A stretch of 64,000 nucleotides of DNA from Candidatus Woykebacteria bacterium (GCA_040876265.1 JBBDPN010000001.1:53691-117690), one strand, 5' to 3'; shown: positions 40,719-61,428, counted from the stretch's first letter. The notes: generated by a model not told the origin, from the sequence alone. Numbers and translations are program-made.

Positions 40719-42131
40719 GTGAGGCTCTTACTGCCTAGGAGCATACAATTTTCAAATCGGGGTTTTACCTTGATTGAGGTATTGGTCGCAACGACAATGA
40801 TAACCATTGTCGGTGCAGCTATTCTCTCCACGATCACTGCTTTCTTAAGAGTTTCACTTATCGCCCAAGATACAGTCCGCGCGCAAAACATTGCCAACGA
40901 GAAACTAGAAACCCTCAAAAATATGCCCTACGACGATTTAGCCACGGTGGCGGGGGCTATTTACCCGCCGGGCAATCTGCCTGATAGCGAAAACGTGACC
41001 GTGGGCACCCATACCTACGTGGTGCACACTTTCATCAGCTACGTAGATGATCCCTTTGATGGAGACGCTAGTGGGAGTATACCTGGTAAGCCGGTGGATT
41101 TTTACCCGTTTGATTACAAAAGAGCTACCATAGAGGTACGAGATAATAATGATGATCGCGTGTTGGCAAAAATTTCATCAAATATCGCTGCCAACGCTGC
41201 CGAAACTAGTGATGATACGGGGATACTATTTGTTCAAGTGGTAGATTCTGATGGTGACCCAGTACCCAATGCAAATATCCATCTCACTAATACGAACCCG
41301 GATCCTGATGTGGACATAAATACAATCACCGACCTAAACGGTAATCTGCAGATCCCACTGCTTCCAGAGGATACCACCAATGGTTATCATATCGAGGCTT
41401 CTCTTGGCTCTGGCTATTCAGTGGATCAGACCTATCCAGATACTGTTCCTGATTACGACCCGGTCCAACCAGATTTTAATATCCTCGCCCAACAGGTGAC
41501 CAATATCACTTTGGTAATTGATTTGACCTCAACGATGAACGTTACGGTGGTAGATGAGACCGGAGCAGCAGTTGCAGATTTGGAAGTGACCGTAGAGAGT
41601 AATAAAAATACCTACGAGCCTTCTGATCCTCTGAGCACAGAGCCGCCAATTTCAAAATTCTCTGATAGTTTCACCACCGATTCTTCAGGAGAGTTTACAA
41701 TCGAAGATCTCGAATTTGATCTTGGTGGCTACCAACTTTCGGTGCCTACCGGCTACTTTGTTATTAGCACCACACCGTACCAAAAAGTGACGGTAGGTGC
41801 TGACGCAACAATCAACGTTACCTTGAAGGTAACTACAGACTCCTCCTGGCCGAGGATAGAGCAAGTGACGCCTATTTCTGGGATAAATAACGGTGCCGTG
41901 ACTGTGGAGATACTCGGTGCGAATTTACCGGTTGGTTCTACGATGGGGCTGACCAAGAGTGGACAGAGCTCGATAGACGCAACTGGTGTGATCAGTAGTG
42001 ATAGCGACACCAAGCTCATTGGCGACTTTGATCTGACTGGAGCAGCCACCGGGGCTTGGAACCTGGTTGTAACCGCTCCTGGAGGTAAGAGTACCACCCA
42101 AAGTAGCGGCTTTACTATAAATTCACCTTAA
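40719..42131 (+). CDS. Large type IV pilin-like protein (prepilin-type N-terminal cleavage/methylation domain)
   Basis: 'NRGFTLIEVLVATTMITIVGAAIL' class III signal. Length 470 aa with Thr/Asp-rich repetitive body. Confidence 0.7.
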   Translation: MRLLLPRSIQFSNRGFTLIEVLVATTMITIVGAAILSTITAFLRVSLIAQDTVRAQNIANEKLETLKNMPYDDLATVAGAIYPPGNLPDSENVTVGTHTYVVHTFISYVDDPFDGDASGSIPGKPVDFYPFDYKRATIEVRDNNDDRVLAKISSNIAANAAETSDDTGILFVQVVDSDGDPVPNANIHLTNTNPDPDVDINTITDLNGNLQIPLLPEDTTNGYHIEASLGSGYSVDQTYPDTVPDYDPVQPDFNILAQQVTNITLVIDLTSTMNVTVVDETGAAVADLEVTVESNKNTYEPSDPLSTEPPISKFSDSFTTDSSGEFTIEDLEFDLGGYQLSVPTGYFVISTTPYQKVTVGADATINVTLKVTTDSSWPRIEQVTPISGINNGAVTVEILGANLPVGSTMGLTKSGQSSIDATGVISSDSDTKLIGDFDLTGAATGAWNLVVTAPGGKSTTQSSGFTINSP

Positions 42132-42134
42132 ATT

Positions 42135-42728
42135 ATGGACAGGTTATTCAAGCTAGTGTCAGCAAAAAAAGGATTTAGTTTAATAGAGCTTTTGATTGCC
42201 ATGGCCATTTCGTCTATCATATTAGTTGTGATCGTAACTGTGATAAATTTGGCCCTGCGACACAGTAGTGGTGGTTTCGAGTCTTTTGAGGCTCAAAGCG
42301 AAGCAGTCGGGATAATGAATAGAGTAGCTGCGGAGATACGCCAAGCTTCGGAAATGGTGAGCGCGCAGCCACAATCAATCACCTTCAGAGAGTATCTGGA
42401 CGTTGGAGCGGCAGCGCCACACCAGATAAGGTTTTTCTTGGATGGGGAAAGCTTGAAAAGAGGAGAGATACCGCCGATAGGAACGGACCCACCTTATACT
42501 TATGATCCAGCTAGTGAAACCATCAGGACCTTATCTTTGGACGTGATAAACGGTGCGGCTGATGTATTTACTTACTATGATCAAGATGGTAACCAGCTAT
42601 TTGCACCGGTTACGCTGGCAGCGGTGACACTGGTTGATATACATCTAATTTTTAGGCAACGAAACAATACCCAACCGCTAGAGGTGGGTACCAAGGCGCA
42701 ACTGAGGTTTAATAAAAATAACTTGTGA
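42135..42728 (+). CDS. Pseudopilin / minor pilin (prepilin-type N-terminal domain)
   Basis: 'KKGFSLIELLIAMAISSIILVVIVTVI'. Confidence 0.7.
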   Translation: MDRLFKLVSAKKGFSLIELLIAMAISSIILVVIVTVINLALRHSSGGFESFEAQSEAVGIMNRVAAEIRQASEMVSAQPQSITFREYLDVGAAAPHQIRFFLDGESLKRGEIPPIGTDPPYTYDPASETIRTLSLDVINGAADVFTYYDQDGNQLFAPVTLAAVTLVDIHLIFRQRNNTQPLEVGTKAQLRFNKNNL

Positions 42729-42732
42729 CCAA

Positions 42733-44391
42733 ATGAAAAAATTGCCTGCCGACAATAGACTCTCGCAAGCTTTCAGAAGCCAAGACGGTCTTGCTTTGCT
42801 GCAAGCGATCATTTTGATCAGCATCGTAGCGTCTCTACTACTAATAATAGTGAGCGTGACGCTTTTGGGTTTGAATGTCTCCAAGCAGGGTGTTAGACGA
42901 ACAGCGGCTTTACACATTGCCGAGGCTGGTATAAATTACTATCTTTGGCACCTGGTACACGATCCGGCTGATTACTGTGATGGCAACCCCTGTGTAGGAT
43001 CACCTCCTTATGGCCCCTTCGTCCATGACTTTCATGATAATACTGGTAAAAAAATTGGTAGCTACACTCTTTGGATCGCTCCGCCATCGATCACTGATGG
43101 AAGTAAGGTGGTGATTTGCCACACTCCACCGGCAACAAATGAGACGATATCGGTGGCTCCCTCCGCCGTGCAGGGGCATCTAGATCATGGTGATTTTCTC
43201 GGACCTTGCGAAGGAGGTGGTACTGGAGGTGGTACTGTCGTGGTCGAGTCTCGCGGAGATGTGGAAGACGGTAATGAAAACAGAACCATCGTGGCTGCCC
43301 TGGGTATTCCTTCGTTTGCTCAGTACGCGGTGGTGGCCAATGATACGGTGAACCATATTCGTTTTGGTGAGGACACCGAGATCTTTGGTCCCATCCATAA
43401 CAACGGGGGAGTTCGTTTTGACGGTGTAGCCCATGATTTGGTTACTAGTGCTATGGCCGAGTATAACGATCCTGATCACGACGACATTGATTCACCACAA
43501 CACTCGTACCACCCAGACAATATTCTGGAGCCTGGTGTTCATACCCATGTGCCTCCAGATGAAGACCGTTTTTTGGGTGGAAAGTCGTTTCCGGTTCCAC
43601 CGGTGGATTTTGCTCAAGTGACGGCTGATCTGAACGAGATAGAAACTCAGGCGACAGATGATGGTTACTACTATGGTCCCACCGGTGCTGGCTACCATAT
43701 CGTTTTGGGCAATAATAACTACACCATTTACAGAGTAAATTCTGTAACCGCTAGTTGTAATACCAGCTTGGGTTGGCAGCCCACTTACGGTATATCAAGC
43801 CAAAGTGTGGTAGCTGCCGGAGTCTCCTACCCTACCAACGGCGTGATTTTTGTGGATGACAACCTGTGGGTCGATGGCAAGATAATGGATGTGGCCTTGA
43901 CGATCGCTAGTAGTGAAGAAATCTACATAAACAACGATATCGAATACACGTATCTGGACGGTCGGGACAAACTGGGTCTGATCGCCCAGGAAAATATCTC
44001 GGTGGGTCTGTACAGCGAGGGGTCTTTTAGTGGTAGTAGTGACCAGCGAGAGCTAACTATCCACGCTGCACTGCTGGCTCAAAATGGTCGGGTCGGTCGC
44101 AATTACTACCCTTACCGATACCGTCAGTTCTCCTGGCAATCCTGGTCTTATTGTTTACAATCTAGTGATAATTACTGGCAGAGGAATAAGATTTCAGTTT
44201 ATGGGTCTCTTGCGACCAACCGGCGCTATGGTTTTTCCTGGATCTGCGGTGACACATGGACGATTGGGGATTATTGCGATAGCGGCTATGACGTGCGGGA
44301 AGTGACCTACGATGAAAATTTGAGTGCCAGTCCACCACCTTCTTTCCCAACGATTGGAAATTACGCGATTTTGGATTGGCGCGAAAAATAG
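42733..44391 (+). CDS. PilX-like minor pilin / large pilus-associated protein (552 aa)
   Basis: N-terminal 'SQDGLALLQAIILISIVASLLLIIVSV' resembles the PilX_N signal-anchor. Confidence 0.45.
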   Translation: MKKLPADNRLSQAFRSQDGLALLQAIILISIVASLLLIIVSVTLLGLNVSKQGVRRTAALHIAEAGINYYLWHLVHDPADYCDGNPCVGSPPYGPFVHDFHDNTGKKIGSYTLWIAPPSITDGSKVVICHTPPATNETISVAPSAVQGHLDHGDFLGPCEGGGTGGGTVVVESRGDVEDGNENRTIVAALGIPSFAQYAVVANDTVNHIRFGEDTEIFGPIHNNGGVRFDGVAHDLVTSAMAEYNDPDHDDIDSPQHSYHPDNILEPGVHTHVPPDEDRFLGGKSFPVPPVDFAQVTADLNEIETQATDDGYYYGPTGAGYHIVLGNNNYTIYRVNSVTASCNTSLGWQPTYGISSQSVVAAGVSYPTNGVIFVDDNLWVDGKIMDVALTIASSEEIYINNDIEYTYLDGRDKLGLIAQENISVGLYSEGSFSGSSDQRELTIHAALLAQNGRVGRNYYPYRYRQFSWQSWSYCLQSSDNYWQRNKISVYGSLATNRRYGFSWICGDTWTIGDYCDSGYDVREVTYDENLSASPPPSFPTIGNYAILDWREK

Positions 44392-44518
44392 CAGCCTCCG
44401 TGCTGCGAAATGCAACATTTCTTAGTACTCTCGGCTGCTGTGCTACCGCTAAGCACCTCCGTACTGTGAAACACAAGGTTTATTAGTACTGCCGACTGCT
44501 GCGACCACTAAAGTGGAC
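44388..44518 (-). repeat. Two tandem partial copies (reverse orientation) of the ~90-nt conserved element between the pilin gene and the PilN-like gene
   Basis: The reverse complement reads '...GGTAGCACAGCAGCCGAGAGTACTAAGAAATGTTGCATTTCGCAGCACGGAGGCTGCTAT' and 'GTCCACTTTAGTGGTCGCAGCAGTCGGCAGTACTAATAAACCTTGTGTTTCACAGTACGG'. Confidence 0.7.
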
Positions 44519-44576
44519 TAGAATCCGCTTGCAATAAGTAAGTTAGGTTGCTACGATATAAAGACAAACACCTGCC

Positions 44577-45128
44577 ATGCTTTTTTTTGGTAAAAAAGAT
44601 CAAAAAGGTATCGACCTGATACCCGAGGGGGAGAAGCCTCTAAAAGATACGAAAATCAAGTTTTTCGCTACCGTTGCTTCTGTTGCGGCAGTAGGTGTTT
44701 TTATTGTGGTTGGTGCAATTCTAGTTTTCCTAAATTTTGCCGAGGGTCGCCTTTTAGCTCAAACTTCGGAGCAGCTTGATAGCCGACTTGGTGAGTGGCA
44801 GCAAGTCGCTACCACCGCGGCTCAAGTAAATTCCACTAAGGCGGCTACCACCCAAATAAATGACGTCTGGACTTCAAATCAACTTTTCACTAAAAGCTTG
44901 AGAGAAGTTCGCAGTGTAGTACCAAAAGGTGCAAGCCTCACGTCCCTTTCAATAGCTGGTGTTAATACCCTGACTCTTCAAGCTGAGGTTTCTAGCGCGG
45001 CCGTGGTTGAGCAGTTGGTTAATAATCTCCGGAAAAATGAGTTTTTCGTAAGTGTGGATCTAGATTCGGTAGTGCGCAGCTCCGATAGTTATGTTTTAAA
45101 TGTGGGATTAACAACAAGGGGTAAATGA
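44577..45128 (+). CDS. PilN-like type IV pilus assembly protein (N-terminal TM)
   Basis: TM 'FFATVASVAAVGVFIVVGAILVFL' plus periplasmic body. Gene context is with pilins. Confidence 0.45.
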   Translation: MLFFGKKDQKGIDLIPEGEKPLKDTKIKFFATVASVAAVGVFIVVGAILVFLNFAEGRLLAQTSEQLDSRLGEWQQVATTAAQVNSTKAATTQINDVWTSNQLFTKSLREVRSVVPKGASLTSLSIAGVNTLTLQAEVSSAAVVEQLVNNLRKNEFFVSVDLDSVVRSSDSYVLNVGLTTRGK

Positions 45129-45898
45129 AAAATTTAAAGAAATTTTTTAAACAGACAATAGTAATAGTCAGCATTGAGATAGCGGTAGCTATCTTTTTGT
45201 GCGTAATAATATTTTTGTTTGTGGTAGTTCCAAATTTCAACTCCTGGCGTAGTAACAGTAGTTCTAGAGAAGAAACGGCCCAGAGACTGGAAAGAGTAGA
45301 AAGAAATCTTCAATCAGTCGCTAGTATTGATGCAGAAAAAATAAAAGTGTTGAGCGAGCAATTGCAGAAGCTATTGTCAGATCAAGCAGATCCGCTGCGG
45401 TTTCTTAATTTATTAGAAGTAGTAGCAAAGTCCAGCGGGATGGAACTTTCGGCTGCCCAAGTTACCACGCAGTCGCAACCTAGCGTAGCTCCAAGCGCGC
45501 CGACCGGTGCCGCCGCTCCCCAAACCCCGGTAAGTGATGGAGCTAGCTCACCGGCTCAGAGCGGTGCTAGTGCGGTAGCAGTCCCAAACCAGTCTGTAAA
45601 GATCTCCTTTTCCGGTTCATTTTCTAATTTGCTTCGTCTCCTGACCAATGTGGATAAGGCCGATATGGTTTCGCTCATCAAAAGTGTTTCCGTGTCTAAA
45701 ACGCAAGGGGAAAGTGGTGTTTCTTTGGCGGTTACCTTTGATCTGATTACCGCTACTGCCGCAGGTACCGCCAACGCTGAAACTTTGACCGCCTTTACTT
45801 TTGAAGATGAAAGCGCGATAGGTAATATATTAAGCAATATCGAGTTTACTTCTTCTCCAGCTAAAAATTCTGTAGGTCGTTCCAACCCCTTCGATTAA
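45125..45898 (+). CDS. PilO-like type IV pilus assembly protein (N-terminal TM, coiled coil, Ala/Pro/Ser-rich linker)
   Basis: TM 'IVIVSIEIAVAIFLCVIIFLFVVV'. Coiled coil 'AQRLERVERNLQSV'. Confidence 0.4.
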   Translation: MKNLKKFFKQTIVIVSIEIAVAIFLCVIIFLFVVVPNFNSWRSNSSSREETAQRLERVERNLQSVASIDAEKIKVLSEQLQKLLSDQADPLRFLNLLEVVAKSSGMELSAAQVTTQSQPSVAPSAPTGAAAPQTPVSDGASSPAQSGASAVAVPNQSVKISFSGSFSNLLRLLTNVDKADMVSLIKSVSVSKTQGESGVSLAVTFDLITATAAGTANAETLTAFTFEDESAIGNILSNIEFTSSPAKNSVGRSNPFD

Positions 45899-45902
45899 TA
45901 GG

Positions 45903-46808
45903 TTAGTTAAACTTGAGCTCAACTACATCGCCGTCGGTGATTTTGTAGTCACGACCTTCCAGACGAACCAAACCCTTTTCAGAGGCTAGTTTCCAGGCTC
46001 CTTGAGCCTGCCGCTCGTAGCCTTGGCGAAGTGGGGCAACCCCAATTAGCTTTTCCCAATTAACAACTTCAGCCTTGATAAAACCCTTTTGCATATCGCT
46101 GTGTACAATCCCGCTTGCACTGAAAGTAGATGTACCCGCTCGAAGTGGCCAGGCCTGGACTTGTTTCCGGCCAGCGATTGTGAAAAAGGTGATGAGGTCA
46201 AGAAGTTCGTAACAGAGCTTTATTACTTTTTCTATTCCGGTTTGCTCAATTCCAAGCGTCTTTAAATATTCTTTTTGCTCATTTTTAGAAAGCTCTGATA
46301 GTTCGTTTTCCAGCTTTGCGCTTATCTTCACCGCTCCTAAAATTCCCACCCCCGGGGTGGGAAGATCTTTTTCGTCGATGTTAATTACATAGACTGACGG
46401 CCTTTCAATACCGGCGTGTTGCAGCTCTTCTTCGATAATTTTTACATCTTCCTGTGGGTTGGGCTGACCTGGTACGTTTGGGTTGTGGAAGCCGCGGACG
46501 AGATGGAGAACTGCATCTACTTCGCGAATATGGCCAAGAAACTGATTGCCCAAGCCCTCGCCCTCGTGAGCGCCTTTGACGAGGCCAGCAATATCGATGA
46601 ATTCGATAGCGGCCGGAACTACTTTTTTGATCCCAGTTACATCGGAAATTTTTTGCAGTCTTTCATCGGGAACTTGAACCACACCAACATTGGGTTCGAT
46701 CGTCGTAAAAGGGTATTCCGCCACTTCCGCGATCTGCCGCTGCAAGAGTGCGTTAAAAAGCGTAGATTTTCCTGCATTGGGTAAGCCAACTATTCCGACT
46801 TTCAACAT
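45903..46808 (-). CDS. ychF: Ribosome-binding ATPase YchF (Obg-like, compact form with TGS domain)
   Basis: 'KVGIVGLPNAGKSTLFNAL'. C-terminal TGS 'RLEGRDYKITDGDVVELKFN'. Confidence 0.85.
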   Translation of the reverse strand: MLKVGIVGLPNAGKSTLFNALLQRQIAEVAEYPFTTIEPNVGVVQVPDERLQKISDVTGIKKVVPAAIEFIDIAGLVKGAHEGEGLGNQFLGHIREVDAVLHLVRGFHNPNVPGQPNPQEDVKIIEEELQHAGIERPSVYVINIDEKDLPTPGVGILGAVKISAKLENELSELSKNEQKEYLKTLGIEQTGIEKVIKLCYELLDLITFFTIAGRKQVQAWPLRAGTSTFSASGIVHSDMQKGFIKAEVVNWEKLIGVAPLRQGYERQAQGAWKLASEKGLVRLEGRDYKITDGDVVELKFN

Positions 46809-46871
46809 TAGATCAAGATTATATCAAACTCAACTTTACTTCGACATAAGCGAGTGCTAAAATGTGTTCAA

Positions 46872-47102
46872 ATGGAAAAGTTTCAAGTAATTCGAAATGG
46901 CATAGTGTTTGAACTTGAGCCTGAAGAAGGTGGGTTTACTATAACAGTTCCTTCTTTACCAGGCTGTGTCTCTTTTGGACAAACCATCGACGAAGCGTTA
47001 GAGGAGATTAAGGACGCGATGGCAGGTTGGGTCGAGGTGGCCAAAGAAGAAGGTCTTGATGTTCCCGAAGAGGTAGAAAAAACCGTTTTTGTCCCGAATT
47101 AA
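46872..47102 (+). CDS. hicB: HicB family antitoxin
   Basis: 'FTITVPSLPGCVSFGQTIDEALEEIKDAMAGWVE'. Stop overlaps the hicA start. Confidence 0.8.
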   Translation: MEKFQVIRNGIVFELEPEEGGFTITVPSLPGCVSFGQTIDEALEEIKDAMAGWVEVAKEEGLDVPEEVEKTVFVPN

Positions 47103-47329
47103 TGAAACTAACCCCAATAAAACCTCGAGATCTTGTAAGAATTTTAGAAAAGAAAGGTTTTTTTGTTCGTAAGCAAACTGGTTCCCACGTTATTTTATTC
47201 AAAAAAGGTATCCGTAGGCCAATTTCTGTTCCTATGCACCCACACGATTTACCATCAGGAACCCAAAGAGCGATTTTGCGTCAAGCTGAAATTTCGCTAG
47301 AGGAGTTTATAAAATTGCTAAAGAAATAG
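47102..47329 (+). CDS. hicA: HicA family toxin (mRNA interferase)
   Basis: 'KPRDLVRILEKKGFFVRKQTGSHVILFKKG'. Confidence 0.85.
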   Translation: MKLTPIKPRDLVRILEKKGFFVRKQTGSHVILFKKGIRRPISVPMHPHDLPSGTQRAILRQAEISLEEFIKLLKK

Positions 47330-47350
47330 TTTTGTGAAATAATTTAGCTA

Positions 47351-48100
47351 ATGCCGGATGAAAATGTAGCCAATCAACAACCTACAACTACAATAGCCAT
47401 AAAGAAACCTATCAATTGGAAAAATATTCTTATCGGTGTAGTCGTCGGTGGAGTTCTCTTTGGCGGTGGTGGTTACCTGGTTTACAATGCTTACCAACCC
47501 AAGAAAGAAGAACCTGCACCGACTTCTACTACCACAAAGACATCAACACCCTCAAGCACAACTAAAAAAGAAGAGCCAAAAGACGAAACTGACGATTGGA
47601 ATTTGTACAAGAATAAAAACTTTGGTTACCAAATTAAGTACCCAAAGAATTGGAAGCCTTACGACGCTGGCATCATAGAAACATCCGTACATTCGGAAAA
47701 GAGTTTTACTTACCGGTCAACCCCTCCACCTGAGATGGAAGACAACAATGCTACTCTAGTGGTAATAAGTGCGGAGAAAGAGGGGTCAACTCAGTATCAA
47801 TCTCTAGTTAATTTCTTCAATACATTTTATGATAGAAGTGCAGGAACATATGTATCTAATACGCTTTGGAGAGCTAAGACTCAGGTAGAGAAGGTGGATA
47901 ATACAACAATAGATGGGTACGCTGCTTTTGAGACGAATGAACAACCAAGTAAGGATGCCGGAACAGGTCCGTATAATGATACTGCTTTTTATGTTAAAAA
48001 GGGCAATGTAGTGTATAGAATTGGCATTTCTGTAAGTAAAGAGGACTCAAACTATCGTGATGCAGAGAAGATTGTCTCAACCTTCAAATTCCTCGATTAG
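47351..48100 (+). CDS. Paralog 1 of a signal-anchored surface protein family (conserved N-terminus 'TT..KKPINWKNIL' + TM, Thr/Pro linker, C-terminal 'FKFLD')
   Basis: 'IAIKKPINWKNILIGVVVGGVLFGGGGYLVYNAYQPKKEEP...STFKFLD'. Confidence 0.5.
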   Translation: MPDENVANQQPTTTIAIKKPINWKNILIGVVVGGVLFGGGGYLVYNAYQPKKEEPAPTSTTTKTSTPSSTTKKEEPKDETDDWNLYKNKNFGYQIKYPKNWKPYDAGIIETSVHSEKSFTYRSTPPPEMEDNNATLVVISAEKEGSTQYQSLVNFFNTFYDRSAGTYVSNTLWRAKTQVEKVDNTTIDGYAAFETNEQPSKDAGTGPYNDTAFYVKKGNVVYRIGISVSKEDSNYRDAEKIVSTFKFLD

Positions 48101-48306
48101 TACAAAACCTTGCTTTATGTGGAACGTTGTGTTAAACTAACCCATAGTTGAATTAGAACACGAGCTAGTACATTGCTTTTCCTCAAAGAGCTTTGAAATT
48201 AGCTCCCCTCCTTCGTAAAAACTTCGAAGGACAAGCCTAAGATTTCAAAGTTCTTGCAATCCGCATTTACTCTTCTTAGCCATTCTACTTCAATTAACAA
48301 AACAAT

Positions 48307-49557
48307 ATGTTTAGAAACAGAAATAGAGCTAGTTTTGGCCGTCATCAAGGCGGTTTTGCTAGAAGAAAATTTAACAAGTCAGCCAACGGTGGTAGTTATA
48401 GTTATCCAAAAAGCATTTCGGCTGGGAGAAGGCTCGCACGAGCAACAAAAAGCGAGCTCGGAGACGATATAAATGTATTTATTAAAAAAGCCGCAGGGAC
48501 TTCAAATGGAGAGGCCTTTACCCCGCACAATAGTTTTGCCGATTTTGATATTGCCCCAGTCTTGAAGCAAAATATTTCTGCCAAAGGGTACACCCACCCG
48601 ACGCCAATCCAGGATGAGGCTATAGAGCCACTTCTTGCTGGTAGAGATCTGATCGGTATTGCCAATACTGGAACCGGGAAGACAGCCGCGTTTCTGGTCC
48701 CCTTAATAAATAAAATTTACAATAATAGATCCGAAAGAATGTTGGTCCTTACTCCAACTCGCGAACTAGCTGGACAGATAAATGAAGAGCTTCATATCCT
48801 TTCTCGTGGTATGAATATTTATTCCTCGCTTGTTATAGGAGGAGCAAATATTCACCGCCAAATCTCTGATATCAAGCGTCGTCCAAGTGTAGTTATTGGT
48901 ACGCCAGGTAGAATAAAGGATCTTATTGAAAGACGCGCCCTGCACCTAGACGATTTTCACACCTTTGTTCTTGATGAGGTAGATAGGATGGTGGATATTG
49001 GCTTTATTAGAGAAGTTCAATATTTTGTTTCGCTTCTTCCTCCAGAGCGTCAATCATTGTTTTTTTCAGCCACGATCCCACCAAACGCGCGAGAAATACT
49101 AGACTCATTTGTAAAAGATCCGGTAACGATATCGGTAAAGGTGCAAGAAACCGCTGAAAATATTGATCAGGATGTTGTCAGGGTGAACGGCGGCAACAAA
49201 TTGGAAAAACTCCACGACCTGTTGAACAGGGAGGATCTTGAAAAAGTGCTTATATTCGGTCGCACCAAGCATGGAATTGACAGGCTAGATAGGCAGCTGA
49301 CCGAAAAAGGTTTCAAAGTCGCCTCTATTCACGGCAACCGCCGCCAATCTCAGAGACAAAAGATACTTAAGCAATTTAAGGAAGATAAGATAAAAATACT
49401 GCTAGCTACCGATGTAGCATCTCGAGGGTTGGATATTGATAACGTATCGCACGTGATAAATTACGATCTTCCTCAAAGCTATGACGACTACGTCCACCGT
49501 ATTGGTCGGACCGGTAGAGCTAACAAGATGGGTAAGGCTCTTACCTTTGTTGATTAA
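48307..49557 (+). CDS. DEAD-box ATP-dependent RNA helicase with Arg-rich N-terminal tail
   Basis: Q-motif 'FADFDIAPVLKQNISAKGYTHPTPIQ'. 'ANTGTGKTAAF'. 'VLDEVDRM' DEVD. 'HRIGRTGR'. Confidence 0.9.
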   Translation: MFRNRNRASFGRHQGGFARRKFNKSANGGSYSYPKSISAGRRLARATKSELGDDINVFIKKAAGTSNGEAFTPHNSFADFDIAPVLKQNISAKGYTHPTPIQDEAIEPLLAGRDLIGIANTGTGKTAAFLVPLINKIYNNRSERMLVLTPTRELAGQINEELHILSRGMNIYSSLVIGGANIHRQISDIKRRPSVVIGTPGRIKDLIERRALHLDDFHTFVLDEVDRMVDIGFIREVQYFVSLLPPERQSLFFSATIPPNAREILDSFVKDPVTISVKVQETAENIDQDVVRVNGGNKLEKLHDLLNREDLEKVLIFGRTKHGIDRLDRQLTEKGFKVASIHGNRRQSQRQKILKQFKEDKIKILLATDVASRGLDIDNVSHVINYDLPQSYDDYVHRIGRTGRANKMGKALTFVD

Positions 49558-49623
49558 AAAAAGTTATCCAACCCTTCCAAGACACATTGACAAACAACAT
49601 AGCAAGACTACATAATTATTTTA

Positions 49624-50499
49624 ATGCCTGAAGAAACCAACACTACAACCAAAAAACCAATAAATTGGAAGAATATCTTACTCGGCGTGACAATCGGAGC
49701 AGTTATCTTTGGCACTGGCGGCTACTTGGTCTACAACGCTTACCAACCCAAAAAAGAAGAACCAGAACAAACCACTAATATCCCAAAGACAGCCACACCC
49801 TCAGCAACACCCACCGATAAAGATTGGCAATTGGTTAAAGGGGAAACAACACAAGATGAAGATGGTAAAGTATATAAATTTGAGTTTAGTGCTCCTAAGG
49901 ATTTCAAAGTCGCCGCACCCAGAGCTGATTTACCAAAGGAATCACAAAAATACTACTACTATGCTGAAGGTTCTGGTGTTACATTTTTTGCTGGTCTTAT
50001 GGAAGGTCCAGGACCTCTTACAGTACTCCATGGGCGTGCTGACCAGAGCAACTTGTGTGTTAAACCTTTACAACTGCAAGAAACTGGGGAGGGCTATTTT
50101 GAGGTTTGTGATGTAGTAAAACTAGGTGGTAAAGACGCACTTTGGTTAATAGATGTCCACATTGGAACAAACAGCCACGCAACGGCTTGTGAGAAGAACG
50201 CCACGCTTCATGTAATATACAACCTGGGTAAAAGCTCCTCAGTTTACTTTACTCCAGAACTTGATGTTATGAAGGAAATAATAAAACCATGGGCGAAGAT
50301 TTCTAGTAAACCTGTTGGTACTGTGGATAGTGGTGGAGAGCTGCAAGTTTGTCCAAAAAATATAGATTACGCTACTGTAAAAAGTAACTTAACTTCAGAA
50401 ATAAACAATATTCGAACTGCAAAAAATCTCTCCGCTAAAGATAGTCAAATACTAGATACACTTTACAAAATAATCCCAACCTTCAAATTCCTTGACTAA
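49624..50499 (+). CDS. Paralog 2 of the signal-anchored 'FKFLD' surface protein family
   Basis: 'MPEETNTTTKKPINWKNILLGVTIGAVIFGTGGYLVYNAYQPKKEEP...IIPTFKFLD'. Confidence 0.5.
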   Translation: MPEETNTTTKKPINWKNILLGVTIGAVIFGTGGYLVYNAYQPKKEEPEQTTNIPKTATPSATPTDKDWQLVKGETTQDEDGKVYKFEFSAPKDFKVAAPRADLPKESQKYYYYAEGSGVTFFAGLMEGPGPLTVLHGRADQSNLCVKPLQLQETGEGYFEVCDVVKLGGKDALWLIDVHIGTNSHATACEKNATLHVIYNLGKSSSVYFTPELDVMKEIIKPWAKISSKPVGTVDSGGELQVCPKNIDYATVKSNLTSEINNIRTAKNLSAKDSQILDTLYKIIPTFKFLD

Positions 50500-50501
50500 T
50501 T

Positions 50502-51173
50502 ATGCCTGGAGAAAGTACAAATTCACAAACCAATCCTACTAAAAATCGGCTAAAAGTTTTGATTGGTGTATTAGTTGGTGCAGTCCTTGGGGTCATACTG
50601 ACTTGTTTTGGTCTTCTTTTCTATCTCACCCAGCAAGGGGTTAACATTTTTACGATAGTGAAGGACGCCGAAACCCAGCAATCTCAAACTGATTCACAAA
50701 AAGACGAAACAGCTGATTGGAGGGTTTATACCAATAAAGACTCCGGCATAAAGTTCAAAGCACCATCAAATTGGAAGGAAGACAACAGAGGCGCTGATGG
50801 GAGTATTTCTATCTATTATAAAGGCGATGCTGGAACAGGGATAGAATCTGATGGAGCTATGATTAGAAACGGTATTACAGTCTCCTACAAAGATTCCTTA
50901 AAAAATTATATCGACAAAAATACAGTTGATACAGAAAAATTCAATTCGGGAGGGTATAGTCCTGGGGATATTTTTGAAAATATTAAGGAAACTACTCTGG
51001 GAGGGAAGCTGGTTTATTTGGGAGACGCTCTTAGCGAGGACGGTCAAGCAAAGGTAGCCTATGTGGATTTAGGAGATGGTACTGCAGCTACTTTTATTTT
51101 AATCACGAAGAATGTAGAAGATTTCGAAGAAACATTTGAACTAGTTATATCGACAGTAAAATTGATCAGGTAA
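50502..51173 (+). CDS. Paralog 3 (divergent) of the signal-anchored surface protein family
   Basis: 'MPGESTNSQTNPTKNRLKVLIGVLVGAVLGVILTCFGLLFYL...ISTVKLIR'. Its start overlaps the conserved junction sequence. Confidence 0.45.
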   Translation: MPGESTNSQTNPTKNRLKVLIGVLVGAVLGVILTCFGLLFYLTQQGVNIFTIVKDAETQQSQTDSQKDETADWRVYTNKDSGIKFKAPSNWKEDNRGADGSISIYYKGDAGTGIESDGAMIRNGITVSYKDSLKNYIDKNTVDTEKFNSGGYSPGDIFENIKETTLGGKLVYLGDALSEDGQAKVAYVDLGDGTAATFILITKNVEDFEETFELVISTVKLIR

Positions 51174-51224
51174 TTAACAAATAACTGAAACTTTGCGTTT
51201 AACCTTCAAATTCCTTGATTAATT

Positions 51225-52355
51225 ATGCCTGAAGAAACCAGTACCACAACCAAAAAACCAATAAATTGGAAGCTTATTGTAATAATTACTGTAATCGCAG
51301 CGATCGCCCTTGGAGCCTTGGCTTACGTCGTTGTAGCTCTTGATATCTTTGGTACAAAGACCAATGAAACAGCAGCAACAAATACTACTACTCCAGAACA
51401 GTCGAACCCACCAAAAGAGGGTTGGAGTAGGCATACTAGCAGGAATTTAGGAATCTCGGTTGATTACCCTAAGGAGTTTAAAGTGGAGGAGCTGCCTACT
51501 AGTGTTAGCGATGTCGATTTTTATTGGCTGATTAGTATTCTTCAACCGGATACTGTGCATCCAGAAATAAGGATAGAAAGCGATTTTATTTACCCAGATG
51601 TAAAAAAAGCATATGAGAGGGTATCTAAATACAAAATAAATGTCCCAAAAGAAAATAAAGGTACTATTGACTCACCTGGTTTTACGGAAACTAGATTACC
51701 AGATGTTACTGTTGATGGTTTGACAGCAATAAAATTAAAAAGTGATAGTCCGGACATAGGAATCAGCGGAGTTACAGTTTATTTAAAAAGGGGTAATAAC
51801 TATTTCAGTTTTGGTCTCTCAACCGAAACAAAATCTCTCAAATCGAATGCGAAAATTTTTGATGAGATACTTTCATCTATAAAATTTATAGGAACCTCTA
51901 TTGGAGAAAAACTGACTAGTCAGTGGAAATCGTATTCTGATGAGACTATTGGGGTTTCATTTAAATATCCGTATACAGCAAAGATTGAAGGGTCTAGTAA
52001 CACAAAAACCTTTAATTTTAATTCGAACCCAGCACTTGGACTTGGGAGCCAGTGGATTCTTTCAGTATCCAAGAAACCGACAGACTGGAAAACATCAAAA
52101 GATATCGAGAGCTACTATTTTAAAAATAACTTCGTAAATCCGATGGAAATTTTTGTAGAAGGTTCCCAGGGCTTGGAGATTTTAGAGCAAAATAATTTGG
52201 ATCCTACAAACTCTCAAACAATAAAAATTCTAGCAGTTTTATTAAAAGATGGTCAAGCTTACACGTTTCAACTTACTAGAGCAGGTGGTGGGGATGTGCT
52301 TGATCTCTACCCCTTCTTTAAAACAATATTGTGGACCGTCAAATTCCTCGATTAG
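51225..52355 (+). CDS. Paralog 4 of the signal-anchored 'FKFLD' surface protein family
   Basis: 'MPEETSTTTKKPINWKLIVIITVIAAIALGALAYVV...ILWTVKFLD'. Confidence 0.5.
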   Translation: MPEETSTTTKKPINWKLIVIITVIAAIALGALAYVVVALDIFGTKTNETAATNTTTPEQSNPPKEGWSRHTSRNLGISVDYPKEFKVEELPTSVSDVDFYWLISILQPDTVHPEIRIESDFIYPDVKKAYERVSKYKINVPKENKGTIDSPGFTETRLPDVTVDGLTAIKLKSDSPDIGISGVTVYLKRGNNYFSFGLSTETKSLKSNAKIFDEILSSIKFIGTSIGEKLTSQWKSYSDETIGVSFKYPYTAKIEGSSNTKTFNFNSNPALGLGSQWILSVSKKPTDWKTSKDIESYYFKNNFVNPMEIFVEGSQGLEILEQNNLDPTNSQTIKILAVLLKDGQAYTFQLTRAGGGDVLDLYPFFKTILWTVKFLD

Positions 52356-52562
52356 AGATGCTGTGGCTTGTAACAATTCTCCCTAAGTAATCTCTCTCAA
52401 CAATCTTAGCGGCTTTCCGGGGTTTTGGGATCCTTAACTCGAACTTAAAAGGTGTGCAGATAGCTTTGGTTTGTGGTATTGCACTTCATCTCCGCCGACC
52501 TTTAGCGTAAGAGGTAGATTTTAATTTAATAGCGGTCAATAAACAAACGGTAGGACTATAGG

Positions 52563-53054
52563 TTGATTTACCAAGGATCTTATGCTAATATCCTGGCCAT
52601 GAGAGATCAACAAAACACAACGGAAGGAGCGGTTAACATGACACAAAGGTGTCGTTTCGAAGACTGCAGTAAGGATAATCCGGCAGAAGCTCGTTTCTGC
52701 ATGTTTTGCGGTAAATCTTTAGCCGGACCAAAAGATAGAGAGTGGACCGGAGAGGTCCTGGAGATCTCTTTGGAGGCGGATTTTGGTCCGCTCAGGGAAA
52801 ATTTCAATCTGCCTGAAGATGTAGTTTCAGACGAGCTGATCAAGCAGGTTGTAAAGTCTTTCCCTTCAAAGCAAACGCAGCGGTTTATCCGTTACTACGG
52901 TTTACATGGTGGGCCGCGGATGAGTATGCGAATGATCGCTGGAGAGGATGGTAAAAGTCCCGCTTCGGTCAATCAGGCCATCAACAACGTCGGCCGTGTC
53001 CTGAAATCCCGAATTAATCGGAGTCTGCTTAACCGTCAGATTGCAAGGGAGTAA
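52563..53054 (+). CDS. Putative regulator: N-terminal Cys4 zinc ribbon + C-terminal sigma-70 region-4-like HTH
   Basis: 'CRFEDCSKDNPAEARFCMFCGKS' and 'RFIRYYGLHGGPRMSMRMIAGEDGKSPASVNQAINNVGRVLKSRI'. Start uncertain (perhaps the internal ATG 'MTQRCRF'). Confidence 0.35.
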   Translation: MIYQGSYANILAMRDQQNTTEGAVNMTQRCRFEDCSKDNPAEARFCMFCGKSLAGPKDREWTGEVLEISLEADFGPLRENFNLPEDVVSDELIKQVVKSFPSKQTQRFIRYYGLHGGPRMSMRMIAGEDGKSPASVNQAINNVGRVLKSRINRSLLNRQIARE

Positions 53055-53256
53055 GTGGTGGAGAGGTAGACATAATAAGCACAGAAGGGCCTCAGCTCGC
53101 GAATCAGCGAACCGGGGTCCTTAATTTTTTCAAAAAAGTTTCCGTAGCGCCATTTTTGCTTTCTCGAGTATTTGTTTTGGATAACCCAATGCAAAGCTTT
53201 TCTTGGTCACTTCAGCTGACCAATATTTTTTTCTTTCGCATCCTTACGCGAGTATT

Positions 53257-53679
53257 TTAGAGCCAGCCGATCACTACACCCATGGCTAAGACTGTGATCA
53301 ATTGGTGAACAGTGTTGATACCGAACAGCCTCCACTTCTTTTCACCGAAGATCTGCTCTGTCAGCTGAACCGGCATAATGAACCCAAGCCAAACCCAAAA
53401 AGCGCTGATGAGGCCGGTTTGAATCGGTTCATAGCCGTAGAAGTCCTGTGATAACCCAATAATGTGAGCAAGTACAAAGGCTGTTACTAAAGCCGCAACA
53501 AAGCTAATAGCGTAAAGTGGGCCCATTGTTTTTTGAGCTGCTTTCAGAGACTCATCGGTATAACCCTTCTCTTTCATCCAAGCCTTGCCCATCACCACTT
53601 TGCTGTAGTAAATAAATCCAATCGCCATAGCCACAACAGCCGCTACCAAAACTGCGAGCCAATTTACATCTACGTTCAT
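53257..53679 (-). CDS. DUF1761-like 4-TM membrane protein
   Basis: 'MNVDVNWLAVLVAAVVAMAIGFIYYS...ISFVAALVTAFVLAHIIG'. Confidence 0.55.
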   Translation of the reverse strand: MNVDVNWLAVLVAAVVAMAIGFIYYSKVVMGKAWMKEKGYTDESLKAAQKTMGPLYAISFVAALVTAFVLAHIIGLSQDFYGYEPIQTGLISAFWVWLGFIMPVQLTEQIFGEKKWRLFGINTVHQLITVLAMGVVIGWL

Positions 53680-53770
53680 TTACATTCACCTCCTCCCAGT
53701 AGTTGCTTAGATAATAATATAATTTTTGCAAATATCAATACAGAGAGAAATGAGAGAGGATCGGTATCTA

Positions 53771-54535
53771 TTATGATTTGCGGTAGAGCCAAACGCTTAC
53801 AGATAAAAAGACAATGGCTATTGCTGCCATCCAGACTAAAGCTGGAATTAATGCCTCATGAGAACCACCAGCAGTGAAAGAGCGTACTGCTTGGGCCACT
53901 TTGGTAACTGGTTGGTTCCTTGCAAAAACTTGGAGCCACTCTGGCATGGTTTGGACAGGGACAAAAATGCTACTGGCAAAAACTAGTGGAAAGATCCAGA
54001 TAAATCCAGCCGGTTGAGCAGATTCCGAATCTTTGACTAACAAACCAATTGCTACCGAAATCCAGGAGAAAGCAAAGCCAAAAAATATAGCTAAGGAGAT
54101 AGCAATAAAGGCGCTAAAAAAACCATCTTCGAAACGAAAACCGATGACCATACCAACTAATATCATGATTGTAACTACAAAAAGGTTTCTTATTGTGTCG
54201 GCAAGAACTCTACCCGAGATGAAAGCTGACCTATTTATAGGTAAGGAGCGCAGTCTATCCACAAGACCTGATGACATATCGGTGGCGATACCAACACTTG
54301 CCTGGCTAGCTCCAAAAAGTACTGATTGGACAATAATTCCTGGAAGAAGAAAATTGATATAATTTCCAGTTCCTGTTTGCTGTATCGCTCCTCCAAACAC
54401 ATAGTTGAATAAGAGTAAAAACATAACTGGCTGAATAGTTGAAAAAACAAGAAGCTGGGGGACCCTGCGATAGCGAATCAAGTTTCTTTGCGTCATTACC
54501 AAAATGTCACTGATTCCATTTACAAAACTACTCAT
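53771..54535 (-). CDS. ABC-2 type transporter permease
   Basis: Six TM segments. 'LRSLPINRSAFISGRVLADTIRNLFVVTIMILVG'. Start set to 'MSSFVNG' (SD GGAAGGA), leaving a 4-nt gap after the ATPase gene rather than the long overlap implied by the ORF track. Confidence 0.75.
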   Translation of the reverse strand: MSSFVNGISDILVMTQRNLIRYRRVPQLLVFSTIQPVMFLLLFNYVFGGAIQQTGTGNYINFLLPGIIVQSVLFGASQASVGIATDMSSGLVDRLRSLPINRSAFISGRVLADTIRNLFVVTIMILVGMVIGFRFEDGFFSAFIAISLAIFFGFAFSWISVAIGLLVKDSESAQPAGFIWIFPLVFASSIFVPVQTMPEWLQVFARNQPVTKVAQAVRSFTAGGSHEALIPALVWMAAIAIVFLSVSVWLYRKS

Positions 54536-55475
54536 TTTTTGTATCCTTCCCGGTGTACGTGAGAAAAACTTCATCCAAAGTAGGTTGAGTGAGGCTGATG
54601 TGAAGCAATTCAATTTCAGCTTTTTCTAATATATTTAAAACGTCCCGGAGATCCACTGGTCCATTTGGAGCCGGGAGAGTAATGAGCTGGTGACTATCCT
54701 TTATTCGGATATTCTGTTTAAATTTATTTTTTAAAAGATTTGAAATTCTCTGATTTTCTTGCCAGTTTTTTGGTTCAATCTCTACCATGTTACCCCCAAG
54801 TTTTCTCTTTAGATCACGACTTGTACCTTGGGCGATTACTTTACCTTTATCTAGCAGAACAATGTTGTCAGCGAGCGCATCTGCTTCTTCCAAATATTGG
54901 GTGGTAAGTACCACTGATGTTCCTTTTTCAACAAGACTGCGAATAAACTGCCAAAGATCGTTTCTGGTTCTTGGGTCCAGTCCAGTGGTTGGCTCATCCA
55001 AAAAAAGAACTTGGGGCTCATATATCAAACTAGCGCCTACGTCGAGTCTTCTTCTCATACCACCCGAATAGGTTTTGACTGGGCGATTTGCAGAGTCTTC
55101 TAGAGACATTTCTTTCAATATAGAGCCAGCTCGATTTCGAGATTCTTTTCTTCCCAGGTGATAAAGACGAGCTACCATTTCCAGATTTTCCTTGCCAGTG
55201 AGGGTTTCGTCAACAGCTGCATACTGACCTGCAAGTCCTATGACCGTTCGGAGTTTTTGTCCATCTTTTGCAACATCAAAGCCAGCTACTGTGGCGCTAC
55301 CTTTGTCCGGGGGTAGGAGAGTGGTAAGGATTTTTATCAACGTTGTTTTACCAGCGCCGTTTGGTCCCAGAAGTCCTAAAACCTTACCTTTTTCGGCATC
55401 GAAGCTAACACCAGTTAATGCTTGGGTTTTACCAAAAGATTTATAAATATTTTTTACTGAGATTATTGATTCCAC
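54528..55475 (-). CDS. ABC transporter ATP-binding protein (DrrA-like)
   Basis: 'GLLGPNGAGKTTLIKIL' Walker A. 'YSGGMRRRLDVG' signature. 'VLFLDEPTTGLD' Walker B. Confidence 0.9.
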   Translation of the reverse strand: MESIISVKNIYKSFGKTQALTGVSFDAEKGKVLGLLGPNGAGKTTLIKILTTLLPPDKGSATVAGFDVAKDGQKLRTVIGLAGQYAAVDETLTGKENLEMVARLYHLGRKESRNRAGSILKEMSLEDSANRPVKTYSGGMRRRLDVGASLIYEPQVLFLDEPTTGLDPRTRNDLWQFIRSLVEKGTSVVLTTQYLEEADALADNIVLLDKGKVIAQGTSRDLKRKLGGNMVEIEPKNWQENQRISNLLKNKFKQNIRIKDSHQLITLPAPNGPVDLRDVLNILEKAEIELLHISLTQPTLDEVFLTYTGKDTKNE

Positions 55476-55950
55476 GGTACCCCCTTTCCTTTTGTGGAGT
55501 GTTTATTTTAGCAAGTAAGTCAACTAGCTGGGCGAGTTCTTTGTCAGTCAAATTATCAAAGGCAGAGGAGATAGACGAGATATACTTGCTTCGGAAAAGG
55601 TTAAATTTTTTGGTAGCAGTCTCGGAAAATTTCACTCTTTGGATGCGGCGATCCGTCGGATCTTCTTCTCGTTTCAACAGTCCTTTTTCCACTAGGTGAT
55701 CGACCATTTGGGTGATAGCGCCGCTAGTAACTTTCAAATGTCTCGCCAGATCCTTCACGCTTACACCTTTATCTTTAAATTTCCGTAGGTAAAAGAAAAG
55801 CTCCATGTGACCGCGGCCGTAGTGGTGTTCTTTGTGATCGTGGTCCCGGTGACCGCGGTGCCAGAAATGGGGTTGGGGTGCTAAAGAGCGAAAGGTACCA
55901 AAAAGCTCTTTAGCTAATTTTTGGATAAGCTCTTCCCGTTTTTGTTTCAT
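55441..55950 (-). CDS. MarR family transcriptional regulator with His-rich insert
   Basis: 'VSVKDLARHLKVTSGAITQMVDHLVEKGLLKREEDPTDRRI' wHTH. 'HRGHRDHDHKEHHYGRGH'. Confidence 0.8.
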   Translation of the reverse strand: MKQKREELIQKLAKELFGTFRSLAPQPHFWHRGHRDHDHKEHHYGRGHMELFFYLRKFKDKGVSVKDLARHLKVTSGAITQMVDHLVEKGLLKREEDPTDRRIQRVKFSETATKKFNLFRSKYISSISSAFDNLTDKELAQLVDLLAKINTPQKERGYRGINNLSKKYL

Positions 55951-56074
55951 AATAGGATAGAGAGTAAAAAGTTTAGCTAATAATTAGTTTAGTGGCTAAA
56001 GTATATATTGTCAAGAGGTTTTAACTAGCGAACTCGCCCCCACAAAAACCTAGGCTTGTAATTACACTGTGTTG

Positions 56075-56557
56075 TCATCCGGTGCCTATCAGTTTTGTGA
56101 TCTTTTTTGCAAACTCATCTCTTTCTTTAGGGTTATCAAAAGCATTTTCTAAAAGCACACTCAGCTGAATTTTAAAGTTTGTCTCTAGTGTTTTAGATGG
56201 CTTACCTGTTGTGGCATTTATTAAAAGAATAGTTGGGATTAAACTAACCAATTGCCGCATTAGTTGTTGTAGTTCAATTTTTCTGTTGTTAATTTCCTCT
56301 TCAGATTTAACTACTCTTTTTTCCAATCTTTCCAATTCTTCAGCTTTGGCGTAGATTTCGTCCCTTATTTTACGAAATCTTGCTTCAAAACTAAGCGTCT
56401 TAATTACTTCTAGCTTGTCAATTGAATAGATTACTACAGATACGAAAAAAGTAGCTAAGTATATTTCAATACTGATAAGACCAATGAATAACAAGAAAGT
56501 AACAAATGCCGATGTAGCAATTAGAAGATATATTCGTCGAAGTTTTCTGAACCCCAT
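56075..56557 (-). CDS. Hypothetical membrane protein (2 N-terminal TM helices + coiled coil)
   Basis: 'IYLLIATSAFVTFLLFIGLISIEIYLATFFVSVVIY'. Coiled coil 'AKAEELERLEKRVVKSEEEINNRKIELQQLMRQL'. Confidence 0.35.
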   Translation of the reverse strand: MGFRKLRRIYLLIATSAFVTFLLFIGLISIEIYLATFFVSVVIYSIDKLEVIKTLSFEARFRKIRDEIYAKAEELERLEKRVVKSEEEINNRKIELQQLMRQLVSLIPTILLINATTGKPSKTLETNFKIQLSVLLENAFDNPKERDEFAKKITKLIGTG

Positions 56558-61330: not shown

Positions 61331-61428
61331 GGCTTGCTTCCATTAGGAGCAGGCCTCAATTCGTTTTTTAGGCTTGCCCACAGCCTCCTTGATTAAGATT
61401 TATGCTGTGTGCTATACTCTGTCCCGAT

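Follow-up and report, generated by a model that had tools for sequence, protein, structure and literature searches.

Four membrane-anchored PsbP-fold genes in a Candidatus Woykebacteria genome: a probable local expansion of a lineage-restricted family diversified by duplication and module exchange

How can four genes in one cluster resemble each other so closely at both ends and so little in between? The question is raised by g1 to g4, which lie in a stretch of 64,000 nucleotides (nt; as a whole, the window) from a metagenome-assembled genome (MAG) of Candidatus Woykebacteria, and of which g1 and g2 have the NCBI locus tags WD187_00560 and WD187_00570. An earlier interpretation made from the DNA without database searches, the sequence-only reading, had described a tandem family of exported proteins and a candidate variable surface-protein system, formed by repeated unequal recombination between conserved ends. 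Our analyses support the tandem family of exported or anchored proteins and make it probable that the cluster is a local expansion of a Woykebacteria family with the PsbP fold, diversified by duplication and module exchange and not by programmed switching. The family is previously undescribed, lineage-specific and membrane-tethered.

An open reading frame (ORF) scan recovered all four genes exactly where they had been placed (Table 1). Each protein has one hydrophobic segment (Kyte-Doolittle hydropathy >1.6, within amino acids (aa) 11-45) with three Lys/Arg residues before it and a Thr/Pro/Lys-rich stretch after it, in agreement with the N-terminal transmembrane (TM) helix that had been proposed. 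The N-terminus is predicted to lie in the cytoplasm and the ectodomain outside the cell, and the products are likely to be signal-anchored membrane proteins that carry, on a stalk at the surface of the cell, a domain for binding or scaffolding. The shared termini held in part. The N-terminal sequence MPEET...KPINWK does not extend to g3, which reads MPGESTNSQTNPTKNRLK in place of KPINWK, nor to the first residues of g1, which begins MPDENV. The C-terminal (S/P)TFKFLD or TVKFLD is present in g1, g2 and g4, but g3 ends STVKLIR, its terminal codons (TCG ACA GTA AAA TTG ATC AGG TAA, 51150-51173) being a decayed copy of the 3' motif considered below. The TM type of g4 differs from that of g2 and matches that of family members of 410-450 aa.

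The central domains had been called highly divergent, and at 22-31% identity they are, but they proved to be related to each other and to have the PsbP fold throughout. Matches to the Pfam domain PsbP_2 (PF18933) exceeded the 27-bit gathering cut-off in g3 (28.1 bits) and g4 (30.4 bits, in two stretches) and were under it in g1 (18.9 bits); g2 had no match. The g1-g4 protein alignment spans 240 residues (BLASTP E 2.6e-14), and g3 matches the second half of g4. An AlphaFold model of g1 from 71 family sequences (predicted local distance difference test, pLDDT, 74.9) had PsbP structures as its top Foldseek matches (E 1e-6, probability 1.00), and the alpha-beta-alpha sandwich is superimposable on solved structures of PsbP or Mog1. 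These three lines, the Pfam matches, the alignments between paralogues and the Foldseek matches of the g1 model, are the reason for assigning all four ectodomains to one fold. The ...TFKF terminus is the last beta-strand of the PsbP_2 domain, the Pfam profile ending at F247 of g1. The g2-type ectodomains (g2 and its orthologues P0002-P0010) have four invariant Cys (C145, C162, C189 and C243) and an invariant FFAGLMEGPGPL, which suggests disulfides and a defined site that are not in the other paralogues.

The PsbP/Mog1/DUF1795 superfamily (with PF18933) has the same ectodomain fold, with the start W..Y...G...YP and the end strand ...TFKF as the last profile position, and includes cyanobacterial PsbP, mycobacterial LpqN, MTC28 and Apa, and the Eag chaperones and immunity proteins of type VI secretion systems. 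Many of its members are secreted or tethered envelope proteins, as is predicted of the Woykebacteria proteins. The Woykebacteria family differs in having an INWK tail, a TM anchor and a Thr/Pro stalk, and not a lipobox or cleaved signal; it is also greatly expanded, g1 and g2 are under the Pfam cut-off, and the functions of the superfamily are not transferable to it.

A profile of the anchor (alignment A2) was searched against 1.84 billion representatives at E<=0.001 and retrieved 128 clusters at 50% identity, mostly of 190-260 aa. A TF(K/R)F terminus was present in 51 of the 117 new clusters, 37 of 71 sampled members of the anchor family had a PsbP_2 match (E<=0.01), and K(D)ETADW is conserved at the start of the ectodomain across the family. 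The predicted cytoplasmic tail usually has the form MP(D/E)...INWK, and the stalk runs up to KDETADW. Among GTDB representatives a strict anchor pattern was found only in Woykebacteria-like genomes, and a complete 915-kb chromosome has family members at three dispersed loci. Judged by these sequences, g1 to g4 are paralogues, and the large family to which they belong does not extend beyond Candidatus Woykebacteria and its close relatives. Homologues in 128 representative clusters have the conserved ends, whose absence from homologues would have refuted the sequence-only reading. These ends are not the local product of repeated unequal crossing-over that had been proposed; they are family-wide and consist of the anchor module and the last PsbP_2 beta-strand. 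A word-based search with the g1 ectodomain retrieved only itself, and one with the anchor alignment returned fragments only, with low-complexity words dominating. A literature search found no account of PsbP-like families in the Candidate Phyla Radiation (CPR) or of Woykebacteria surface proteins.

Comparison of family members (P numbers, proteins; L numbers, loci of other genomes) revealed that the anchor and the ectodomain have separate histories. Anchors that are 60-90% identical occur alongside ectodomains that are 22-32% identical, the random baseline being 24%. The decoupling is found in both directions, since P0016 and P0017 have N-terminal modules that are 90% identical and ectodomains that are 31% identical, and P0002 and P0003 have ectodomains that are 80% identical and N-terminal modules that are 32% identical; g2-type ectodomains were found on at least three anchor types. 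Within the window, g2 and g4 begin with 48 nt that are 94% identical, and their first 16 codons have the same codon at 12 of 13 identical degenerate positions, followed by an abrupt switch of TM type. In L009 two neighbouring members (7605-8402 and 9048-9674) have 205 nt of anchor and linker in common, at 82% identity and with an identical protein stretch, YWYLVLNKSESNVNTAPIKVSTPSAKVSTKSAT, but their ectodomains are only ~32% identical.

The same pattern was found at the DNA level at corresponding loci. The window and L007 are 80-83% identical at 47339-47599, which covers the promoter, anchor and linker of g1 as far as the Trp codon, have no alignable similarity across the whole g1 ectodomain, and are again similar from 48075, 5 nt before the motif, with 78% identity through the helicase gene to 49558. 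Conserved flanks around an unalignable middle were also found in the pairs L001/L018a, L001/L004, L004/L018a and L010/L029, and the 3' block begins no more than 11 nt from the motif. In the genome pair of the window and L018 the g2-type ectodomain is 54% identical and the ectodomain at the hic locus 29%, which argues for replacement and not for uniformly fast divergence. The number of family genes at the locus varies as well, being one in L001 and in L007, two in L018 and four in the window; in L007 toxin-antitoxin genes stand at the position of g2-g4.

Some of these observations could be met by a history without recombination, in which the genes are old paralogues whose anchor and last strand have been preserved by purifying selection and whose ectodomains have diverged fast under diversifying or relaxed selection, and in which the repeat at the gene junctions stems from one ordinary tandem duplication. 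The anchor similarity of g1 and g2 (153 nt shared at 76%) is indeed old because most synonymous sites have already been randomised, the same codon being used at only 23 of 45 identical degenerate residues. The ectodomains retain their fold and first-strand motif, W..Y...G...YP, and synonymous divergence is high, as in the helicase of the window and L007, which is 88% identical as protein and 78% as DNA. Such a history is nevertheless difficult to reconcile with similar ectodomains on unrelated anchors (P0002/P0003), similar anchors with unrelated ectodomains (P0016/P0017), the abrupt change after the 48 shared nt of g2 and g4, and a genome pair in which one ectodomain is conserved and the other is not, and we consider it decidedly unlikely. 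The earlier proposal that recombination between conserved ends shaped the family is supported by its mosaic 5' ends, the junction duplication around g3, the decoupling of anchor and ectodomain and the replacement of ectodomains. At the level of sequence, the comparisons demonstrate that the family is modular, and recombination is the route that we infer. The cluster would have grown via tandem duplication; in the family as a whole, ectodomains would be replaced and anchors swapped by homologous recombination, for which the 5' module and the 3' end with its flanks, both conserved, provide the homology. Ectodomain replacement of this kind would leave related genomes with different ectodomains at the same locus.

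The junctions within g2-g4 bear further marks of recombination. The repeat that had been noted there, J, is present in two copies that are identical at 35 of 37 nt, and each consists of the 3' motif, GAY TAA, TT and ATGCCTGRAGAAA. The second copy had been regarded as an orphan remnant before g4; it is present, but it is not free-standing, lying 28 nt past the stop codon of g3 and in another frame. Only 22 nt of 3' coding sequence are left in this copy, a stop at 51175 precedes it, and the sequence upstream of its AACC has no resemblance to a gene end. Two copies of J bracket a segment made up of g3 with its stop codon and the next 27 nt. Two histories could account for the orphan copy. A fifth paralogue between g3 and g4 may have been deleted down to its last 22 nt, or a circle with g3 and one J may have entered a g2-J-g4 junction by a single (Campbell-type) crossover, in which case J would be duplicated around g3 because a single crossover duplicates the homology. 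Both are ordinary recombination in a tandem array, either fits, and we do not rank them.

Direct repeats at gene boundaries, an orphan junction and diverse paralogues that are probably surface-exposed are also what could be expected of programmed phase or antigenic variation, that is, of high-frequency switching by gene conversion, unequal crossing-over between conserved ends, or inversion. We regard such switching as highly improbable here. Searches with Pfam among the ORFs of the window from 33.5 to 64 kb, which is the scope of all our statements on enzymes, found no recombinase, integrase or reverse transcriptase. The cluster consists of four complete, full-length ORFs, of which g1 and g2 have promoter-like sites of their own; it has no archive of silent donor cassettes, and the only truncated piece is the 22-nt remnant. 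Inverted repeats are short, imperfect and no more frequent than by chance, no invertase accompanies them, and the repeats that exist are just 37-53 nt long. The contigs on record with the g1-g4 proteins are two, from independent assemblies, and they are identical, so that no alternative arrangement is on record, and the conserved ends are family-wide across genomes. The dedicated variable surface-protein system that had been proposed as a candidate is not supported, and nothing indicates a programmed switching device; the findings fit an evolutionary diversification of the surface-protein repertoire that is ordinary for such families.

Known cassette and variation systems were considered individually and rejected. 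For integron cassettes, J has no dyad symmetry by sequence inspection, and the scanned neighbourhood has no Phage_integrase match. For a diversity-generating retroelement, the only long repeat is the g1/g2 anchor, which is at the 5' end, and there is no reverse transcriptase. For a shufflon, there are neither an invertase nor inversion repeats.

A more difficult observation concerns the 3' ends of the genes. Exact copies of the 14-mer ACCTTCAAATTCCT lie at 48080, 50479 and 51202, and a copy with a single mismatch lies at 52335. With up to two mismatches the 14-mer occurs five times in the window, compared to 1.0 expected from shuffles, and none of 100 shuffles reached five. The terminal codons (TCA) ACC TTC AAA TTC (CTY) are near-invariant at synonymous sites in about 20 of the family's genes, which come from at least 10 different genomes or contigs, and the motif extends to distant members with different anchors (L029; L034, ...TCC ACC TTC AAA TTC ACC GAT TGA; L036). 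A codon test on 18 genes (Fisher, with p values not corrected for phylogeny) compared the motif with the remainder of the same genes. Phe is encoded by TTC at 32 of 33 positions in the motif versus 45 of 155 elsewhere (8e-14), Thr by ACC at 16 of 19 versus 20% (1e-8), and Ser by TCA at 13 of 14 versus 21% (5e-8); genome-wide, 76% of Phe codons are TTT. The codons just 5' of the motif are freely variable, and in the equally conserved anchor a single codon is kept at only 1 of 17 invariant degenerate residues. Exceptions to the motif are AAG TTT in L026, ACA in L030, GTC in g4 and the decayed end of g3.

Candidate explanations of this constraint are a recombination boundary, a signal at the RNA level, avoidance of TTTAAATTT and a codon-specific effect at the C-terminus. 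Inspection of the motif as a promoter, terminator stem, antisense ORF or partner of the 5' end gave nothing consistent, and GC-biased conversion was rejected because TCA and AAA are retained. The 12-17-nt element (TCA)ACCTTCAAATTC(CT) may be a dedicated cis-acting signal, either a recombination boundary for ectodomain donation or an RNA element controlling leaderless mRNAs; this suggestion is speculative and, in our estimation, rather unlikely. If it were true, Woykebacteria would have a built-in system of cassette exchange or co-regulation for their main surface-protein family, and the orphan motif copy before g4 would be a functional unit and not debris.

A rival explanation of the cluster is a dedicated cassette system, in which the 3' motif, alone or together with the junction TAATTATG, would be a cis recombination site that bounds swappable ectodomain cassettes and is acted on by an unlinked enzyme. 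In its favour are the near-invariance of the motif at synonymous sites, against the free variation of the equally conserved anchor, the position of the motif at the left boundary both of the 3' homology of five gene pairs and of the orphan copy, and the direct J repeats on either side of g3. A number of findings are nonetheless contrary to it: the recombinase, integrase and reverse transcriptase searches were negative, the motif has no dyad symmetry, most family genes are solitary with their own promoter, and the motif of L026 has synonymous changes. A scan of JGI (Joint Genome Institute) metagenomes for ACCTTCAAATTCCT followed after 3-24 nt by ATGCCNGA gave seven matches, all of them unrelated chance matches. 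Furthermore, the homology to the right of the motif has a different source in three of the five pairs, namely a small convergent coding frame, and on this evidence such a system appears distinctly improbable.

This frame lies on the minus strand 3' of g4. The 190 nt after g4 are conserved 3' of the single hic-locus gene in L001, L004 and L018 and partly in L024 (alignment A3), and the same conserved element is upstream of hicB in L026 (625-775). In the minus-strand frame, differences by codon position number 134/93/233, which indicates a small coding sequence of ~45-54 codons (...IPFEFKLRIPKPRKA..YLGRIVSSQ..). In L001 (54 aa, GTG start, 10715-10879, minus strand), and possibly in L026, the frame is intact; it has an internal stop in L004 (~10920-11065), and has no canonical start in L018 (~2784-2917) or the window. 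Neither the frame nor the element had a match in Pfam, NCBIfam or Rfam. A non-coding RNA was rejected for the 190 nt, as there was no Rfam match, the consensus folds of both strands were weak, and their energies were worse than those of shuffles (z +1.6 and +1.2).

The 5' ends of the genes suggest how the cluster may be expressed. Promoter-like sites end 7 nt before the ATGs of g1 and g2 (Table 1), that of g2 being the best sigma-70-like site of the region, and leaderless mRNAs are proposed for both genes for this reason. Among 16 family genes of other genomes, 11 have a TANNNT hexamer at 5-10 nt from the ATG, in many cases accompanied by a -35 TTGACA, and no Shine-Dalgarno (SD) motif was found in any family gene examined. 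No promoter-like site was found at the junctions before g3 and g4, where J stands instead, and these genes start 2 and 51 nt past the preceding stops, so that a g2-g3-g4 operon is likely. Accordingly expressed, g1 and g2 would be transcribed from their own promoters, and g3 and g4 would probably depend on the g2 promoter via translational coupling or re-initiation. In the window as a whole, 13 of 32 long ORFs (>=200 aa) are preceded by TANNNT at a distance of 5-10 nt from the first ATG, and only 3 of 32 by an SD-like motif, which suggests widespread leaderless or SD-less initiation in this genome. A role of ychF in the regulation of leaderless translation has been reported, as cited in PMC12641178. 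The ychF gene adjoins the family locus in several genomes.

The genomic placement of the family bears on its function. The gene order of the window is pilins/PilN/PilO (40719-45898), ychF on the minus strand, hicB-hicA, g1, a DEAD-box helicase gene, g2-g3-g4 and an ORF of 163 aa. The sequence-only reading had placed the genes between HicAB and the type IV pilus genes and had regarded this as compatible with a surface or host-interaction locus; the pilus genes instead precede ychF and hicBA, and their linkage is not conserved, being found only in the window and its closest relative, L007. Directly upstream of g1 are hicBA, and the order ychF (minus strand), hicBA, family gene is repeated in L001, L018, L024 and L026. 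Family genes are located directly after ychF in L004, between ftsZ and pyrG in L008 and L009, and between murB and murA in L030.

The clusters of envelope and division genes with members are murB-member-murA-alr-ddl-murF-mraY (L030 1152-1859, JAUYHE010000038.1) and ftsA-ftsZ-member(s)-pyrG (L008 and L009). The complete chromosome OZ246414.1 (915,171 bp; L006, L009 and L010) is labelled 'uncultured Gammaproteobacteria bacterium' but carries family genes of the Woykebacteria type and shares the ftsA-ftsZ-member-pyrG synteny with a Woykebacteria MAG (L008), so that its taxonomic label looks wrong. Two members are decayed: an ORF of 107 aa in L008 (7578-7901) is an anchor and linker with no ectodomain, and one in L009 (6056-6664) has an N-terminal truncation with its start inside the TM segment, a form also seen as P0019.

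Several points weigh against our interpretation of the cluster as a product of duplication and module exchange among surface proteins. No recombination event was directly observed, nor was a donor found for any of the replaced ectodomains. With synonymous sites near saturation between the genomes that were compared, a domain under weak constraint could also lose its nucleotide similarity through extremely fast divergence. Module exchange does not explain why the codons of the motif are near-invariant. The ftsZ-pyrG and murB-murA contexts hint at a role in envelope biogenesis, which they fit at least as well as host interaction, and because of these neighbourhoods of some members we consider the envelope role as plausible as the other. 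Our statements on topology, export, promoters, leaderless starts and operons are predictions.

Surface families with conserved termini and divergent middles include the Helicobacter Hop/Hor proteins, the Mycoplasma Vsp/Vlp lipoproteins and the Borrelia Erp/Mlp proteins. The Woykebacteria family appears analogous to these in its shared targeting and C-terminal ends, tandem or dispersed paralogues, mosaic genes and strain-specific repertoires. It differs in phylum, fold and anchor, and no slipped-strand repeats or invertible promoters were seen. Short 3' elements are present at variant-antigen genes such as the 16-mer in the 3' untranslated region of trypanosome variant surface glycoprotein (VSG) genes, the 17-bp direct repeats of Borrelia vlsE and the Sma/Cla repeat of Neisseria pilin. 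The 3' motif may be likened to them as a short near-invariant element at the 3' boundary of a hypervariable gene family; in contrast to them, it is located within the coding sequence, where it occupies the last five or six codons, and has no organisation of expression site and silent copies. YSIRK-G/S signal peptides occur on staphylococcal and streptococcal surface proteins. A potential parallel is the conserved N-terminal targeting motif on otherwise unrelated surface proteins, suggesting a common sorting route, although INWK precedes a predicted uncleaved anchor, and there is neither sequence similarity nor LPXTG.

CPR bacteria are mostly uncultured. Any contact with hosts or partners must be mediated by their surface proteins, almost all of which are 'hypothetical'. 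Our analyses name one large family of such proteins in Woykebacteria, in which an INWK anchor and a Thr/Pro stalk carry the PsbP-fold ectodomain and which comprises at least 128 clusters at 50% identity, and give annotation pipelines a reason to treat clusters of this kind as one family and not as unrelated orphans. They also make it probable that the family evolves by module exchange, and show that related genomes vary, at one and the same locus, in how many copies and which ectodomain types they carry. In addition, a short 3' element under nucleotide-level constraint is flagged as a possible recombination or RNA signal.

Table 1. Positions in the window of the family genes, their motifs, junctions and putative expression signals, and neighbouring genes.
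Feature	Position	Strand	Description
g1, 249 aa	47351-48100	+	KKPINWK in predicted cytoplasmic tail, predicted TM aa 25-45, Thr/Pro/Lys linker to KDETDDW, PsbP-fold ectodomain, C-terminus STFKFLD
g2, 291 aa	49624-50499	+	g1-type anchor; ectodomain with four conserved Cys, PsbP/Mog1 fold; C-terminus PTFKFLD
g3, 223 aa	50502-51173	+	divergent member without INWK; PsbP_2 domain; decayed terminus STVKLIR
g4, 376 aa	51225-52355	+	two tandem PsbP-like domains (~aa 66-222 and 231-376); ends WTVKFLD
3' motif in g1, TCAACCTTCAAATTCCT	48077-48093	+	codons S-T-F-K-F-L
3' motif in g4, ACCGTCAAATTCCT	52335-52348	+	
J, copy 1	50478-50514	+	last 22 nt of g2 (motif and GAC TAA), TT, first 13 nt of g3 (ATGCCTGGAGAAA)
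J, copy 2	51201-51237	+	orphan motif ...TFKFLD* (51202-51222), TT, first 13 nt of g4
Small coding-like frame (…IPKPRKAAKIVERDYLGRIV…)	52342-52485	-	convergent with g4; TGA stop inside g4 motif, no canonical start
Promoter-like site for g1	47315-47343	+	TTGCTA-17-AATAAT, TG-extended
Promoter-like site for g2	49587-49616	+	TTGACA-18-CATAAT, 11/12
hicB	46854-47102	+	antitoxin of toxin-antitoxin pair; Pfam HicB_lk_antitox 44.3 bits
hicA	47102-47329	+	toxin of toxin-antitoxin pair; Pfam HicA_toxin 64.1 bits
DEAD-box RNA helicase gene	48307-49557	+	non-family; Pfam DEAD 151 bits, Helicase_C 123 bits
ORF after the array, 163 aa	52563-53054	+	CxxC...CxxC stretch; Zn_Ribbon_1 20.9 bits, below 25-bit cut-off

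The HicAB module is present as adjacent HicB_lk_antitox and HicA_toxin genes, both over the 27-bit cut-off, and the DEAD-box helicase gene is indeed between g1 and g2; the helicase copy of L007 is also 3' of a g1-like gene. Proteins of 212 aa and 411 aa encoded next to the helicase in L001 and L019 were considered as possible members, and neither belongs to the family. The ORF after the array had been taken for a Zn-ribbon/sigma-r4-like regulator, of which the Zn-ribbon part has a sub-threshold match only and the sigma-r4 part was rejected, with support from neither Pfam nor the PDB; the ORF had no PDB relative and no counterpart in related loci.

An independent Logan assembly of SRR27977662 is 100% identical to the window over 46502-56355, and the repeats are shorter than one read, for which reasons an assembly artefact was rejected. 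Genes for ribosomal protein S6, SSB and a MutL-like protein adjoin ychF in L001, L002 and L004 (L001 5234-7497); in the window they are at 61402-63800, ~15 kb off and on the opposite side of the locus, and the region has therefore been rearranged between lineages.

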